From positions 1-7,991 of the IMG/VR virus record IMGVR_UViG_2695420739_000008: a stretch of DNA of 7,991 nt; one strand, written 5' to 3'. The translations under genes were made by a program, and so were the position numbers. How positions within the stretch are numbered: the first letter of the stretch is position 1; each line of letters starts with the position of its first letter. The notes under the pieces were generated by a model that saw only the letters and a program-made list of their open reading frames with translations, had not been told where the DNA came from and did not search any database. Source of the stretch: a virus (taxonomy: Duplodnaviria; Heunggongvirae; Uroviricota; Caudoviricetes). Positions 1,505 through 7,991 of the stretch are shown piece by piece.

Positions 1505-1690
1505 TTACTTAATTATGTAATTCATACCCGAATTCTCTGTTGACAGCCTTCTTCTGCAGGCTTCAATAACCCACGCTGAAAAGTTTCCTGAACCTTTCAG
1601 ATCAAGAGCGATGTTAATTTGTTCAATCATCTGGTTTGGAAATCGGATGTTGCGGGTTGTTGTTCTGCGGGTTCTGTTCTTTGATGACAT
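1505..1690 (-). CDS. Small Arc/MetJ-like ribbon-helix-helix DNA-binding protein (61 aa), putative
   Basis: Minus-strand ORF with SD GGGGA 6 nt before the ATG. Product MSSKNRTRRTTTRNIRFPNQMIEQINIALDLKGSGNFSAWVIEACRRRL... has a basic N-terminal tail, a beta-strand-like NIRFP, and two helices, which resembles the Arc motif (FNLRWP...) as I recall it. This is the only gene in the window on the opposite strand. Confidence 0.45.
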   Translation of the reverse strand: MSSKNRTRRTTTRNIRFPNQMIEQINIALDLKGSGNFSAWVIEACRRRLSTENSGMNYIIK

Positions 1691-1866: not shown

Positions 1867-2291
1867 GGGTCCTTTCCGGCGATCCGACCGGTTACGGGGC
1901 GGCGACCTCGCGGGTTTTCGCTATTTATGAAAATTTTCCGGGAACCATGTCCGGTTTCTCTTCAAGTTAACTATATGAAAAATATAAAAACAGGTCTTCT
2001 GTGAACCGGACATGCACAAAAAATAGACATGTAAGCCGGACATGACCGGTTTTGTTGTGATTGTGAGGTGAGAGTTTTTGCGAGGTGAGGAGTGGCTACG
2101 CAGACTGAAGTTGCCAGGCATTTAAGTCTGACCGATCGCCAGCTTCGCAGATTGCAGAAATTGCCGGGTGCCCCGATATCAAATAAGCGAGGGCAACTGG
2201 ATCTGGATGCCTGGCGCGATTTTTACATATCGTATCTGAGGAGAAGTAAAAACGATGTGCCTGATGGCGATAGCGAAGACGACTATGAGGA
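1867..2291 (+). repeat. 425-bp direct repeat, copy A (cos site plus 5' 200 nt of the terminase small-subunit gene)
   Basis: Matches 7329-7753 at a constant offset of 5,462 bp with 5 mismatches (1881, 1889, 2016, 2025, 2035) by direct reading. Sequences diverge immediately outside both boundaries. Confidence 0.9.
1875..2053 (+). other. Lambda-type cos site, copy A: cosQ, cosN (1897-1908) and cosB with R3 (1946-1956, inverted), AT-rich IHF-like I1, R2 (2004-2014), R1 (2034-2044)
   Basis: GTTACG|GGGCGGCGACCT|CGCGGGTTTTCGCTATTTATGAAAATTTTCCGG matches the joined right and left ends of lambda DNA as I recall them. Three copies of a CCGGACATG-type element, one inverted, flank an A/T-rich segment, as in lambda cosB. 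Confidence 0.8.
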
Positions 2292-2352
2292 ACGCATGGC
2301 GCGGCCTTTTTTTTATGACCTGCCACTGGCAGATGGTCATCCTGTGATTTGA
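2092..2352 (+). CDS. Truncated terminase small subunit (Nu1-like residues 1-67, the winged-HTH DNA-binding region) fused to a 19-aa unrelated tail; possibly a gene remnant
   Basis: GTG start with SD GAGGTGAGGAG. The first 67 codons are identical to the gene at 7554. After position 2291 the sequence diverges and the frame ends after RMARPFFYDLPLADGHPVI. Confidence 0.65.
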   Translation: MATQTEVARHLSLTDRQLRRLQKLPGAPISNKRGQLDLDAWRDFYISYLRRSKNDVPDGDSEDDYEERMARPFFYDLPLADGHPVI

Positions 2353-2400
2353 TTCCGGTTCCGGCTTTTTAACTCTGTTCCTGTACACGGGAGAAATTCG

Positions 2401-4338
2401 ATGTCGATTAAACATTATGATGTTGTCAGGGCGGCGTCGCCGTCAGATCTTGCGGAAAAGCTGACACACAAACTGAAAGAGGGCTGGCAGCCGTTTGGTA
2501 GTCCTGTGGCCATAACCCCTTATACCCTGATGCAGGCGATTGCCGCGGAGGGGGATGTGACCACGCCAGTGGTTGTGCCCGGCACGGGGGATGGTGGCTA
2601 TCCGGGAGTGGTCACCACGGAGCCAGATTATTACTACGTTATTCCACTGGCCGGGCAGTCGAACGGCATGGCTTACGGTGAGGGGCTTCCTCTGCCGCAG
2701 ACATATGACCGTCCTGACCCGCGTATAAAGCAACTGGCTCGTCGCAGCACAGTGACGCCGGATGGCGCTCCCTGTAAATATAACGACATTATTCCGGCAG
2801 ACCACTGTCTGCATGATGTACAGGACATGAGCCGTCTTAACCATCCGAAAGCTGACCTGTCGAAAGGTCAGTACGGAACCGTGGGGCAGGGGCTGCATAT
2901 TGCCAAAAAGCTGCTGCCGTTTATACCGGCGAATGCGGGTATTCTTCTGGTTCCGTGCTGCCGTGGTGGTTCAGCTTTCACCACCGGGGCAGATGGAACA
3001 TACAGTGACGTGACCGGTGCCTCAGAGAGTTCTACCCGCTGGGGTGTGGGCAGGCCGCTGTATAAGGATCTCATCGGTCGTACAAAAGCCGCGCTGGCAA
3101 AGAACCCGAAAAATGTGCTGCTTGCCGTGGTGTGGATGCAGGGGGAATTTGACTTTGACGGAACGCCAGCAAATCACACAGCCCGTTTTACAGAAGTAGT
3201 GGAACAATATCGTACGGACCTTGCAGATATGGTGGGACAGTGCGCTGGTGGTTCTGCTGACGGTGTTCCCTGGATATGTGGAGACACAACTTATTTCTGG
3301 AAGCAGAAGAGCGAATCCACTTACCAGACGGTGTACGGCAGTTACAAAAACAAAACGGAAAAGAATATTCACTTTGTGCCGTTCATGACCGATGAGAACG
3401 GAGCAAATGTCCCGACGAACAAACCGGAAGAAGACCCGGATATTCCGGCATCAGGATATTACGGTGCGGCCTCCCGGACGTCGGCAAACTGGACGTCAGC
3501 AGACCGTGCGAGCCATTTCAGCTCATGGGCACGCAGGGGGATTATTTCTGACCGTCTTGCCTCAGCGATTCTTCTCCATGCAGGACGGACGGCTGAACTG
3601 GTGGGTGGGGAACAGGTTGTGATGCCGCCGGATGAGAAGCCGTCACCGGACACACCATCAACACCGTCAACGGACGGGAAATCAGTGACAACGCTGCTTT
3701 ATTACCGTGCAACAGAGTCAGGTGGTTTACTGAATCCGCAGGGATGGGGAGCTGAAGGAGGGCGTGCATTGGTAGTTGATGATGCAGGTGCTGCAGGAGG
3801 TAAGGCGCTGAGGTGGACCAAACAGACAGGAAGTTCCTCGTGGTTTATGCAGCATGATGTCGGTAATGGCGCAGACCTGCTGGAGAAGGGCGGGCTTATC
3901 AGTTGTCGTTTTAAAGTTGATGGCACACTGACAGCTAATCAGTACGCACTGGCGCTGTACTGGCCGGTTTCTTCACTGCCTCAGGGCGTCACACTGGAAG
4001 GTAATGCCGGTCATAACCTGCTGGCGTCGTTTTACGTACAGAGCGATGCCACAGACCTTAATGTGATGTACCACAAGGGAAATGCTGGTCAGAACACGAA
4101 GCTGGGGTCATTCGGCGCATTTGATAACGAATGGCATACGCTGGGCTTCCGTTTTGCCGGTAACAACAGTATTGAGGTGACGCCGGTCATTGATGGTAAG
4201 GACGGGACGCCGTTCATGCTGTCACAGTCACCGGTCGGCACGTTTACGGCAGACAAATTGCGCGTGACCGATATCACTAGCGGTGCGACATATCCGGTGC
4301 TGATTGAAAGTATAACAGTGGAAGTGAATAACCCGTAA
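2401..4338 (+). CDS. nanS-p: Prophage-encoded sialate O-acetylesterase of the NanS-p type (645 aa): N-terminal DUF1737-like region, SGNH/SASA esterase domain, C-terminal carbohydrate-binding-like region
   Basis: SD GGGAGA 6 nt upstream of the ATG. N-terminus MSIKHYDVVRAASPSDLAEKL...GWQPFGSP and the GQSN motif (Ser87, nt 2659-2661) are typical of SGNH-type sialate O-acetylesterases. The 645-aa size and the position immediately upstream of the S-R-Rz lysis genes match the nanS-p genes of EHEC Stx prophages as I recall them. Confidence 0.85.
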   Translation: MSIKHYDVVRAASPSDLAEKLTHKLKEGWQPFGSPVAITPYTLMQAIAAEGDVTTPVVVPGTGDGGYPGVVTTEPDYYYVIPLAGQSNGMAYGEGLPLPQTYDRPDPRIKQLARRSTVTPDGAPCKYNDIIPADHCLHDVQDMSRLNHPKADLSKGQYGTVGQGLHIAKKLLPFIPANAGILLVPCCRGGSAFTTGADGTYSDVTGASESSTRWGVGRPLYKDLIGRTKAALAKNPKNVLLAVVWMQGEFDFDGTPANHTARFTEVVEQYRTDLADMVGQCAGGSADGVPWICGDTTYFWKQKSESTYQTVYGSYKNKTEKNIHFVPFMTDENGANVPTNKPEEDPDIPASGYYGAASRTSANWTSADRASHFSSWARRGIISDRLASAILLHAGRTAELVGGEQVVMPPDEKPSPDTPSTPSTDGKSVTTLLYYRATESGGLLNPQGWGAEGGRALVVDDAGAAGGKALRWTKQTGSSSWFMQHDVGNGADLLEKGGLISCRFKVDGTLTANQYALALYWPVSSLPQGVTLEGNAGHNLLASFYVQSDATDLNVMYHKGNAGQNTKLGSFGAFDNEWHTLGFRFAGNNSIEVTPVIDGKDGTPFMLSQSPVGTFTADKLRVTDITSGATYPVLIESITVEVNNP

Positions 4339-4485
4339 GCAGGAAAAAAAGGCCGCCGGGGCAGGGAAAACAAGGAGCCAGAACCGGCGGCAAATGTCGT
4401 TATATCCAAAGCAAAACATGCAGGACACTTTTTTAACCAACAGGTATTAACGATGTCAACACCATATCAATAACCGGGAGGGATA

Positions 4486-4668
4486 ATGAGATTTGTACAG
4501 CTTATTTTATTGTATTTCTGCACGGTGGTGTGCACGTTATATCTGGTAAGTGGCGGGTATAAGGTTATCCGGAACTATATACGCAAAAAGATTGATGCCG
4601 CGGCGGCGGAAAAAATCAGCGCCAGCCAGTCAGCCGGAACAAAACCCGAAGAGCCTCTCATTTCGTAG
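4486..4668 (+). CDS. Hypothetical small membrane protein (60 aa)
   Basis: SD GGGAGGG 4 nt before ATG 4486. N-terminal hydrophobic segment LILLYFCTVVCTLYLV followed by a basic, hydrophilic tail. Confidence 0.5.
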   Translation: MRFVQLILLYFCTVVCTLYLVSGGYKVIRNYIRKKIDAAAAEKISASQSAGTKPEEPLIS

Positions 4669-4705
4669 CAACTTTCTTAACAACACCTTTCAACGAGAAA
4701 ATCCT

Positions 4706-4975
4706 ATGTCAGAAATAAAATCTCTGGTCACTGCTGAAGCAGTGAAGGACGTCCTGCGCTCTGAAGAAGTCAGAAGCGCACTGAAACAGCAACTCCGCCA
4801 GAATCTTGAGGCGCGTCTTGATGCTGAAGTGGATGCCATTCTGGATGAGCTGCTGGGGGGACCGGCTGCTCCTGAGCCTGAAGACGGCGCGGGTGACAGT
4901 GCTGTTTCAGATGGCGTTGTGTCTCAGCCTGACGGTAGCAGTGAGCCTCAGCCTGGCGGCGAAATGATGATGTAA
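4706..4975 (+). CDS. Hypothetical acidic protein (89 aa)
   Basis: ATG 4706 (MSEIKSLVTAEAVKDVL...) with a weak SD. Helical, charged N-terminal half and an acidic Pro/Gly/Ser-rich C-terminus. The tool ORF 4550..4975 is the same frame with an N-terminal extension that overlaps the preceding ORF. Confidence 0.5.
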   Translation: MSEIKSLVTAEAVKDVLRSEEVRSALKQQLRQNLEARLDAEVDAILDELLGGPAAPEPEDGAGDSAVSDGVVSQPDGSSEPQPGGEMMM

Positions 4976-5050
4976 CCATACGCAGGGGCTGTCGGTGTGA
5001 GCTGATGCCCCTCCTGTTGTTGTGAGCTTCCGGATTGCGGGAGACGGGGT

Positions 5051-5266
5051 ATGTACCAGATGGAAAAAATAACAACGGGTGTGTCATACACCACGTCAGC
5101 GGTGGGGACGGGATACTGGCTACTGCAGTTGCTGGACAAAGTCTCCCCATCCCAGTGGGTGGCAATAGGCGTATTGGGTAGCCTGGTGTTTGGCTTGCTG
5201 ACGTATCTGACAAACCTTTATTTCAAGATTAAAGAAGATAAGCGTAAGGCTGCGAGAGGTGAATAA
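5051..5266 (+). CDS. S: Class II holin (pinholin) of the phage 21 S family, with dual-start motif Met1/Met4
   Basis: 71-aa product [71 protein letters not shown] closely matches S21 as recalled: two TMDs and a basic C-terminus. Its stop overlaps the endolysin start. Confidence 0.9.
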
Positions 5267-5763
5267 TGTCGCCATCATTACGCAAGGCTGTTGCTGCTGC
5301 TATTGGTGGTGGGGCTGTTGCCATAGCGTCTGTGCTCATCACTGGTCCGAGTGGTGACGATGGCCTGGAAGGTGTCAGCTACATACCATACGAAGATATC
5401 GTTGGCGTATGGACTGTATGTCACGGACACACCGGAAAAGACATCATTCCCGGTAAAACGTATACCGAAGCAGAATGCAAAGCCCTCCTGAATAAAGACC
5501 TTGCCATGGTCGCCAGACAAATTAACCCGTACATCAAAGTCGATATACCGGAAACAACGCGCGGCGCTCTTTACTCGTTCGTTTACAACGTGGGCGCTGG
5601 TAATTTCAGAACATCGACGCTTCTTCGCAAAATAAACCAGGGTGATATCAAAGGCGCATGTGACCAGCTACGTCGCTGGACATACGCTGGCGGTAAGCAA
5701 TGGAAAGGGCTGATGACCCGTCGTGATATTGAGCGTGAAGTCTGTTTGTGGGGGCAGCAATGA
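5266..5763 (+). CDS. R: SAR endolysin (phage 21 R-type lysozyme with N-terminal signal-anchor-release domain)
   Basis: N-terminal Gly/Ala-rich weakly hydrophobic segment [19 protein letters not shown]4-lysozyme-like catalytic residues at E35, D44 and T50 ([17 protein letters not shown]). Overall match to R21 as recalled. ATGA overlap with the downstream Rz. Confidence 0.92.
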
Positions 5764-6227
5764 GCAGGGTAACCGCGATTATCTCCGCTCTGGTTATTTG
5801 CATCATCGTCTGCCTGTCATGGGCTGTTAATCATTACCGTGATAACGCCATCGCCTACAAAGAGCAGCGCGACAAAAACGCCAGAGAGCTGAAGCAGGCG
5901 ACCGCCACCATTACTGACATGCAGAAGCGCCAGCGTGCTGCTGATGCACTCGATGCTAAATACACGAAGGAGTTAGCCAATGCGAAAGCTGAAAATGATG
6001 CTCTTCGGCGTAAGCTTGATAATGGTGGTCGGGTGCTCGTCAAAGGAAAATGCTCTGTGCCATCCTCAGCCGAAACCTCCAGCGCCTCCGGCATGGGCAA
6101 TGATGCCACCGTCGAACTCTCTTCAGTTGCTGGACGAAACGTTCTCGGTATCCGGGACGGAATTATCCGTGACCAAACAGCACTGAGAACGCTTCAGGAG
6201 TACATCAGGACGCAATGCCTGAAATAA
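5760..6227 (+). CDS. Rz: Rz-type i-spanin, copy B
   Basis: [45 protein letters not shown]...[12 protein letters not shown]: the N-terminus is nearly identical to lambda Rz as recalled, with the conserved C-terminal Cys. The tool ORF from 5748 is a GTG extension. Confidence 0.9.
5980..6186 (+). CDS. Rz1: Rz1-type o-spanin lipoprotein embedded in the +1 frame of Rz, copy B
   Basis: [21 protein letters not shown]...[14 protein letters not shown]: signal peptide, lipobox (VVGC), proline-rich mature region. Same frame relationship to Rz as in copy A. Confidence 0.85.
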
Positions 6228-6259
6228 TTTTTTTGCAAATCACAAAGTCAATTTAATGA

Positions 6260-6282
6260 GCCTCGCGATGCGGGGCTTTTTT
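6260..6282 (+). terminator. Putative rho-independent terminator downstream of Rz/Rz1 copy B
   Basis: Stem GCCTCGC (6260-6266) / GCGGGGC (6270-6276), 7 bp with one G-U pair and a 3-nt loop, followed by TTTTTT (6277-6282). Confidence 0.5.
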
Positions 6283-6425
6283 ATGTCCGCAGTAAACGCG
6301 CATCTCACGCGCATATTAACGAGAGCCTTTCAGTAAGCGAGCCTGAGAAATGCCGTTATAGGTGGCGACCTCTCTCGGGCGGCTTTTCTGTGAGACAGGC
6401 TCACTTTCTAAAAGGTAAAGACGCT

Positions 6426-6950
6426 ATGAATAATCATTCAGTTATTCCAGCCTTCGACTTCCGAGAAATGGTGCAAGCCAAAAACGGAGAGGTCGTTACC
6501 ACATCCAGAAAAATTGCCAAGTACTTCGGCAAGCGACACGGTGATGTTCTCAGGAAAATCGAGCAGGTTAAGGTTGATTGCTCGCGTGAGTTTAGCCAAC
6601 GCAATTTTGCGTCGGCTGATTATATCGATGAGCAGGGCAAGGTTCGCCCGATGTACAGCCTGACGAAAGATGGCTGGATCATGGTTGTGATGGGGTTCAC
6701 CGGGAAAGCTGCTGCGGCAATCAAGGAGAGCTATATCGCAGCATTCAACTGGATGGCAGAGCAACTGAGCCGCCGCATGGCAATTGGCGAAGAAATGCAG
6801 CACCGCTACGCCATCAAAGAAACACGCTCAAAGCTGAAAGGTACGATCGGCAGTCGGTTAATGAACGAACGGAAGAGAGAGAAGCGTGTCCTGGCTGTCG
6901 AGCATGAATACATTTTGCAGGTGACACAGCCTGAACTGCTGATTAATTGA
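6426..6950 (+). CDS. rha: Rha-family phage regulatory protein (antirepressor-like N-terminal domain)
   Basis: N-terminal region ...FDFREMVQAKNGEVVTTSRKIAKYFGKRHGDVLRKIEQ...MYSLTKDGWIMVVMGFTGKAAAAIKESYIAAFNWM matches the Rha/pRha domain pattern as recalled. Start ATG 6426 has a weak SD; an upstream GTG at 6390 is possible. Confidence 0.75.
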   Translation: MNNHSVIPAFDFREMVQAKNGEVVTTSRKIAKYFGKRHGDVLRKIEQVKVDCSREFSQRNFASADYIDEQGKVRPMYSLTKDGWIMVVMGFTGKAAAAIKESYIAAFNWMAEQLSRRMAIGEEMQHRYAIKETRSKLKGTIGSRLMNERKREKRVLAVEHEYILQVTQPELLIN

Positions 6951-7060
6951 AGATGTCATTACAAAGCCTATCTACGGGTGGGCTTGATAATGGCTTATAC
7001 CCTGCACGGGATAACTTAACTGATATCCCTTTTAACGGATAAAGGTATTCAGGCCTGACA

Positions 7061-7250
7061 CATCATGCGCTGTATCGTCGCCGTATTCCCGCATTAACCA
7101 TGACCGTAGCCCGACGGGGAACTCCTCTGCGCGAGTGTGCGGGAATAATCAAAAACGATGCACACCGGGTTTTTACCGCGCTAATGATTCGCGGGTTTGT
7201 CCCTCATGCTCGCCAGTCTTGTGCGAGGGTGGAAGAAACAGGGCATGTAT
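7061..7250. repeat. Conserved noncoding block downstream of the lysis/Rha genes, copy B (paralog of 890-1080)
   Basis: About 80% identical to 890-1080 with indels. The ORFs the tool places here (7100..7432, 7197..7466) are not conserved in copy A. Confidence 0.6.
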
Positions 7251-7328
7251 TCAGGAGCGTGCGACCGTGGTCGCACGACGCTGGTCTGTCAGACATTGAA
7301 TTCATTGCGAATAAACCAGAACGCTTGC

Positions 7329-7753
7329 GGGTCCTTTCCGGCAATCCGACAGGTTACGGGGCGGCGACCTCGCGGGTTTTCGCTATTTATGAAAATTTTC
7401 CGGGAACCATGTCCGGTTTCTCTTCAAGTTAACTATATGAAAAATATAAAAACAGGTCTTCTGTGAACCGGACATGCGCAAAAAATGGACATGTAAACCG
7501 GACATGACCGGTTTTGTTGTGATTGTGAGGTGAGAGTTTTTGCGAGGTGAGGAGTGGCTACGCAGACTGAAGTTGCCAGGCATTTAAGTCTGACCGATCG
7601 CCAGCTTCGCAGATTGCAGAAATTGCCGGGTGCCCCGATATCAAATAAGCGAGGGCAACTGGATCTGGATGCCTGGCGCGATTTTTACATATCGTATCTG
7701 AGGAGAAGTAAAAACGATGTGCCTGATGGCGATAGCGAAGACGACTATGAGGA
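7329..7753 (+). repeat. 425-bp direct repeat, copy B (cos site plus 5' 200 nt of the terminase small-subunit gene)
   Basis: See copy A (1867-2291). Confidence 0.9.
7337..7515 (+). other. Lambda-type cos site, copy B: cosQ, cosN (7359-7370), cosB R3 (7408-7418), I1, R2 (7466-7476), R1 (7496-7506)
   Basis: Same elements as copy A. Differences from copy A are confined to two positions in the cosQ-proximal region and three in the R2-R1 segment. Confidence 0.8.
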
Positions 7754-7991
7754 GAAATTGCTTATTGCCAGATGGGAACTGACAGCAGAACAGGCTGTTA
7801 CACAGCAGCTAAAAAATGAGGTGTCAAAAGGAAAACTGATTGACACCGGATTCTGTATTTTTGCCCTCAGTAAGCTGGCAATGGCGTTATCCAGTACGCT
7901 TGATTCCATCCCTTTATCCATGCAGCGACAGTTTCCTGATTTAACACCGCGCCATCTTGACCATCTGAAAACCCTTATTGCGAAGGGGGCA
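7554..7991 (+). CDS. Terminase small subunit (Nu1-like), 3' end outside the window
   Basis: GTG start with SD GAGGTGAGGAG. N-terminal HTH-like region; C-terminal part ...IDTGFCIFALSKLAMALSSTLDSIPLSMQRQFPDLTPRHLDHLK resembles lambda gpNu1 (...ETAFCTFVLSRIAGEIASILDGLPLSVQRRFPELENRHVDFLK) as recalled. The ORF is still open at the window end. Confidence 0.85.
   Translation, partial: MATQTEVARHLSLTDRQLRRLQKLPGAPISNKRGQLDLDAWRDFYISYLRRSKNDVPDGDSEDDYEEKLLIARWELTAEQAVTQQLKNEVSKGKLIDTGFCIFALSKLAMALSSTLDSIPLSMQRQFPDLTPRHLDHLKTLIAKGA

Follow-up and report, generated by a model that had tools for sequence, protein, structure and literature searches.

The window, that is, the whole stretch of 7,991 nt analysed here, consists of two lambda-like late-region ends arranged in tandem (Table 1). 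The left module comprises two small membrane ORFs, Rz/Rz1, a minus-strand YlcI/DUF3950 gene, one cos site and the 5' end of a small terminase gene (terS), and the right module is made up of a SASA/NanS-p-type esterase, small ORFs, holin, endolysin, Rz/Rz1, a Rha-family gene, a second cos and terS. The two Rz genes share 84% identity over just 176 nt, so the two lysis modules derive from different phages. A plain tandem duplication of a single phage's esterase-to-terS segment was rejected because the lysis and cos-proximal segments differ, both in their Rz genes and in the presence of ylcI in one copy and rha in the other. A 58-nt non-coding segment 3' of each Rz gene (943-1000 and 7116-7173) is 91% conserved between the otherwise different modules; it had no match in Rfam, nor did a search of the whole window return one. 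The right-hand module (2293-7991) is itself mosaic, as any complete E. coli genome covers at most 71% of it in one place, and its closest large block is found in O55:H7 strains (98.8%).

Table 1 Features of the window, with positions counted from its first nucleotide
Feature	Position	Strand	Remarks
Left Rz/Rz1	408-881 (Rz), 634-819 (Rz1)		Rz1-like lipoprotein ORF embedded in the +1 frame
YlcI/YnfO (DUF3950) gene	1505..1690	-	Customary left neighbour of cos in this prophage type
Upstream cos copy	1867..2091	+	cosN and cosB-like R repeats
terS' codons 1-67	2092..2292	+	GTG start, predicted wHTH (helices 4-10, 15-22, 38-54), acidic linker, first turns of the following helix
Tail, 19 codons and TGA	2293..2352	+	Reads the 3' end of a small ORF (CPT_434_70 in phage 434) out of frame; predicted disordered
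Intrinsic terminator remnant	2293..2314	+	3 nt of the left arm, loop, right arm GCGCGGCC, T8
SASA-family carbohydrate esterase, 645 aa	2401..4338	+	DUF1737 + SASA + DUF6645, NanS-p type; first gene of the right-hand late region
Holin	5051-5266		Right module
Endolysin	5266-5763		Right module
Right Rz/Rz1	5748-6227 (Rz), 5980-6186 (Rz1)		Rz1-like lipoprotein ORF embedded in the +1 frame
Rha-family gene	6390-6950		Right module
Downstream cos copy	7329..7553	+	
Full-length terS copy	7554..7991	+	146 of 169 codons, the rest cut off by the window end; Pfam Phage_Nu1 at residues 49-144

The repeat finder and pairwise alignment both identified a direct repeat (1867-2291 and 7329-7753) that contains the cos site and codons 1-67 of a small terminase gene of the lambda type (terS/nu1). 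Phages PhiR12_1-5 carry this TerS type and share its cosB; the cosB of lambda is different. The two copies differ at five positions, all of them 5' of the start codon (1881, 1889, 2016, 2025, and 2035), and at position 2292, so that the 201 coding bases (2092-2292 vs. 7554-7754) are identical with the exception of the last one. Both cos copies are complete: the cosN at 1897-1941 is identical over 45 nt to lambda cosN (lambda bp 1-45, left end), and each copy has three exact CCGGACATG repeats, one of which is inverted and the third of which lies within a palindrome. In the upstream cos these R repeats are located at 1946-1954 (minus strand), 2006-2014 (plus strand) and 2036-2044 (plus strand, part of the palindrome CCGGACATGACCGG), and when one mismatch was permitted the motif was matched 11 times in the window against 1.95 expected. 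The window thus holds two complete cos sites in the same orientation, each with a lambda-identical cosN, at a distance of 5,462 bp; if the element were inducible, the terminase would meet two initiation/termination sites spaced far below a head-full.

The ORF under study (2092-2352) begins with a GTG preceded by a GAGG 5 nt upstream, and the same GTG is annotated by RefSeq as the start of the full-length, 169-aa terS in strain Z1323HEC0108 (a 99.7%-identical genome). Its codons 1-67 are those of the downstream copy, after which 19 new codons (RMARPFFYDLPLADGHPVI) and a TGA follow. The initial annotation had described this structure (Shine-Dalgarno sequence, GTG, 67 terS codons, 19 unrelated codons and a stop) and its position next to its own cosB from the letters alone, and both descriptions proved correct, the former through the repeat finder, the alignment and the RefSeq start, the latter through the complete cos with its three exact repeats. 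The open frame of the tail is uninformative, no more than chance would give, since a fusion always continues as far as the next stop codon and random entry points in the window have a median read-through of 19 codons, which equals the tail length; the alternative frames at the junction would yield 17 and 7 codons. The frame of the tail also differs from that of the small ORF in phage 434. The gene that follows 3' of the ORF is the SASA esterase and not terL, hence the terS stump does not lie between cos and terL.

With regard to the domain content of the stump, the search against Pfam returned no match for the 86-aa ORF. As Phage_Nu1 (PF07471) covers even the full copy only from residue 49 onwards, homology of the N-terminal part to the gpNu1 DNA-binding domain (DBD) needed a separate test. 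A profile built from 18 relatives and searched against PDB matched the N-terminal structure of lambda TerS (6hn7_B, E = 3.7e-9) and the gpNu1 DBD (1j9i, E = 1.4e-3), while phrog_57 ('terminase small subunit') was matched in PHROGs with E = 8e-11. In the AlphaFold (AF2) model of the 86-aa product, residues 1-54 form a helix, a turn, a second helix, a wing and a long helix (pLDDT 81-87), and residues 55-86 are disordered, with no helices. The initial annotation had proposed a structure prediction as a check for a complete winged helix-turn-helix (wHTH), and the model agrees with the profile on this point. Foldseek searches of the same model against PDB returned only wHTH matches, none of them significant (best E = 0.47); as the disordered third depresses Foldseek scores, the sequence-profile result was used for the homology of the wHTH instead. 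Profile and model together support the view that the stump product would carry a complete Nu1-type wHTH homologous to the DBD of lambda gpNu1.

In the AlphaFold model of full-length TerS, the wHTH ends at residue 55 and is followed by a low-confidence acidic linker (56-61) and three long helices (62-94, 98-126, and 132-168). The central self-assembly helices (62-94 and 98-126) are missing from the stump apart from 6 residues, and so is the C-terminal segment that binds the large subunit, as the ORF stops at residue 86 in unrelated sequence and the full-length protein has 169 aa (P0039). Pfam, alignment and full-length model therefore agree with the initial annotation that the parts for assembly and large-subunit binding are absent. 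Its placement of the break at the domain boundary holds only roughly: the wHTH is whole, but the break lies about 12 residues past the boundary and about 6 residues into the helix at 62-94. Likewise, the domain that ends near residue 68 in lambda is retained, but residue n of this stretch aligns with lambda residue n+13, which places E67 near lambda G80 and not at lambda E68. In fold class the stump resembles the N-terminal DBD constructs of lambda gpNu1/TerS (PDB 1J9I, residues 1-68; 6HN7, TerS N-ter 1-98), with which it is homologous in sequence; the order of helix-turn-helix, wing and third helix is predicted in it with pLDDT above 80, and it is encoded just 3' of a cos with a lambda-identical cosN and three R-type repeats. 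It differs from the lambda DBD in its shorter wing and inserted acidic linker, and from the lambda fragments, which are laboratory constructs, in being natural, in ending at about lambda residue 80 and in its 19-residue nonsense tail.

The junction was mapped to 2292|2293, where megablast splits the query. At this point the parents have at most 1 nt in common, so the join is illegitimate and not a product of homologous recombination. In 92 complete E. coli genomes the left part (1-2291) runs on into an intact terS and terL. To the right of the junction, identity is 97-98% with phages 434 and 2B8 and with E. coli O55:H7 CB9615, and in relatives the right part is normally preceded by Q, membrane protein and DUF3927 genes. 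In phage 434 the breakpoint falls inside an annotated intrinsic terminator, within a small ORF, and this terminator upstream of the esterase gene is conserved in phage 434, phage 2B8 and CB9615. The phage 434 hairpin (GGCUGCGC-AUU-GCGCAGCC-U8) has a folding energy of -23.3 kcal/mol (z = -4.4), compared with -9.4 kcal/mol (z = +0.32) in the window, where the U8 is kept, the left arm is lost save for 3 nt, and the hairpin is not predicted. In CB9615 (NC_013941.1), relatives of the left and right halves are located in two prophages (2462211-2464941 and 1987668-1994457), 468 kb apart and in the same orientation. Judging by this layout, a join of the kind seen here would be a deletion between co-resident prophages or the outcome of their recombination upon induction.

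The junction was found in none of the 5,426 complete E. coli genomes searched with megablast; exact and degenerate junction patterns had no match in GTDB representatives (one genome per species), metagenome contigs or viral contigs, and no record of the exact 86-aa protein was present in the gene-position index. As junction and protein are absent from all collections searched, there is no conservation that would support selection, and the event appears, from these sequence searches, to be private to its source. The same terS is truncated elsewhere, as seen in the protein database, at about residues 25, 31, 33, 40, 48, 53, 70, 71, 73, 79, and 100, by fusions, in-frame deletions or frameshifts. 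The tails are all different, and these truncations are of independent origin; the three contexts examined were defective prophages with deletions from terS into gpJ or gpE. The truncations appear to be concentrated at codon 48 and across codons 67-79, their fusion partners being gpJ, gpE and gpM-like (P0001, P0002, P0017, P0018, P0019, P0003, and P0025-P0028), a pattern that may be due to a deletion hot spot, to selection, or to ascertainment by clustering or search. An exhaustive HMMER search with residues 1-67 recovered 44 relatives among 1.84 billion representatives, of which the distant ones were full-length (150-192 aa) and the short ones were heterogeneous fragments, and no stand-alone family of the TerS N-terminal domain was found among them. 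One 2,465-aa representative (P0101) was discarded as a spurious match to a translated tandem repeat.

The ORF is most probably a gene stump that arose when the late regions of two lambda-like prophages were joined non-homologously, and a plain recombination scar is the most likely explanation when set against a purpose-built packaging decoy. The initial annotation had named such an in-frame scar as the simpler alternative, and it is favoured here by the breakpoint in the terminator hairpin, the chance length of the tail and the lack of conservation. Read directly from the sequence and its comparisons, the left parent (lysis genes, ylcI, cos, terS) ends at terS codon 67, and the right parent begins 108 nt 5' of the esterase gene, inside the stem of the intrinsic terminator. 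The reading frame from the unaltered terS start then enters out-of-frame sequence and halts after 19 codons. No promoter-like site above chance was found 5' of the ORF, so the stump would be transcribed only by late-operon read-through, sharing a transcript with the intact terS that lies 5.5 kb further downstream. Its translation, if any, would probably yield a DNA-binding domain with a disordered tail, unable to join the oligomerisation helices or to bind the large subunit; competition for R sites or pairing with full-length TerS in mixed dimers, should either occur, would be incidental and not a function under selection. Three points speak against a scar: the start, the Shine-Dalgarno sequence and the complete wHTH are kept with zero substitutions, so nothing would hinder expression; Rpp, a mimic of exactly this TerS domain, is a proven packaging-interference factor (PMC6739421); and the breakpoints in the databases cluster somewhat at codons 48 and 67-79, although ascertainment is possible.

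An assembly or read chimera, in which terS codon 67 and the pre-esterase sequence are not connected in the cell, is unlikely. The junction was indeed found in no other sequence searched, and the region is rich in near-identical prophage repeats (up to 15 matching places per genome) that are notoriously difficult to assemble. However, repeat-driven misassemblies switch within shared sequence, and the absence of any shared sequence between the parents at the switch makes an artefact less likely. Moreover, the upstream cos copy carries 5 SNPs of its own, and its 99.7% match to a natural genome extends to the base that immediately precedes the junction.

A selected decoy or dominant-negative, whose DBD-only product would occupy the cosB R sites or pair with TerS and thereby block packaging of the resident phage or of a superinfecting phage with the same cosB, is very unlikely. 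A complete wHTH homologous to the gpNu1 DBD, a start and Shine-Dalgarno sequence identical to those of the working terS gene, and the existence of several further N-terminal stumps of the same gene would all suit such a role, but the junction is unique and unconserved in the collections searched, the other stumps carry unrelated tails and stem from ordinary structural-gene deletions, a stand-alone family is absent, and PADLOC returned no defence-system match for the ORF. The isolated lambda DBD is reported (Yang et al. 1999, de Beer et al. 2002) to bind cos DNA weakly, which was counted against a decoy. Lambda TerS dimerises via its DBD and the Rpp of PICIs interferes by mimicking this domain (PMC6739421, PMC9026076), so that a dominant-negative effect of the stump is mechanistically conceivable by analogy; on the other hand, with no promoter of its own the stump would be made only alongside its target TerS and at about the same level, while Rpp has been argued to require molar excess (PMC9026076). 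The interference function suggested by the initial annotation is thus left unsupported, with no conservation, stand-alone family or defence match, a disordered tail and a breakpoint in a terminator hairpin. Our literature searches on prophage small terminase subunits in truncated or dominant-negative form, and on gpNu1 K100 constructs, returned nothing relevant.

The mechanism imagined for the stump is that of the Rpp (redirecting phage packaging) proteins of E. coli PICIs, small TerS-like wHTH proteins that pair with the TerS DBD and block phage packaging (PMC6739421), in the context of a cos lacking phage-type R repeats (PMC9026076). These proteins have 139-154 aa, a C-terminal three-helix dimerisation/coiled-coil module (alpha4-alpha6, residues ~65-139), another DNA specificity and a PICI context, none of which is found in the stump: its residues 55-86 are predicted to form no helices, which leaves it without a dimerisation module, and it sits in a lambdoid prophage late region with three R-type repeats and not in a PICI. 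RppC was not among the PDB matches of the stump-family profile at E ≤ 1. More generally, we see only a very small chance that N-terminal TerS stumps kept next to cos in defective or rearranged lambdoid prophages, among them the present one, are expressed and, as Rpp-like dominant-negatives, exclude or dampen the packaging of phages of like cosB/TerS specificity. If they did act in this way, the recurrence of breakpoints just past the DNA-binding domain would be explained, and if the decoy reading were true, the decay products of prophages would be a cheap source of packaging-interference proteins and a natural parallel to the Rpp of PICIs.

Further close counterparts of the stump are the truncated terS/nohA-type remnants of defective lambdoid E. 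coli prophages (P0001, P0002, P0017, and others), in which N-terminal codons of the same gene have likewise been fused to unrelated sequence by deletion. The remnants examined stem from deletions that end, on the right, within head or tail genes of their own prophage. In the stump, by contrast, the right-hand end is located 5' of an esterase gene that belongs to a second late region, and as a consequence two cos sites and two lysis modules were left in tandem. Truncated terS remnants at junctions of prophage rearrangements are common, and the stump is an as yet unrecorded instance; the join also identifies the prophage as a hybrid that has two cos sites and two lysis modules. Should the stump be a scar, its significance is limited to annotation, as stumps of this sort are labelled 'hypothetical protein' and may be taken for novel small genes. 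PHROGs divides the TerS of this lineage into phrog_7289 ('unknown function', N-terminal 91 positions) and phrog_1790 (C-terminal part), and this split, together with the failure of Pfam Phage_Nu1 to cover the wHTH, accounts for the labelling of N-terminal stumps as hypothetical proteins.
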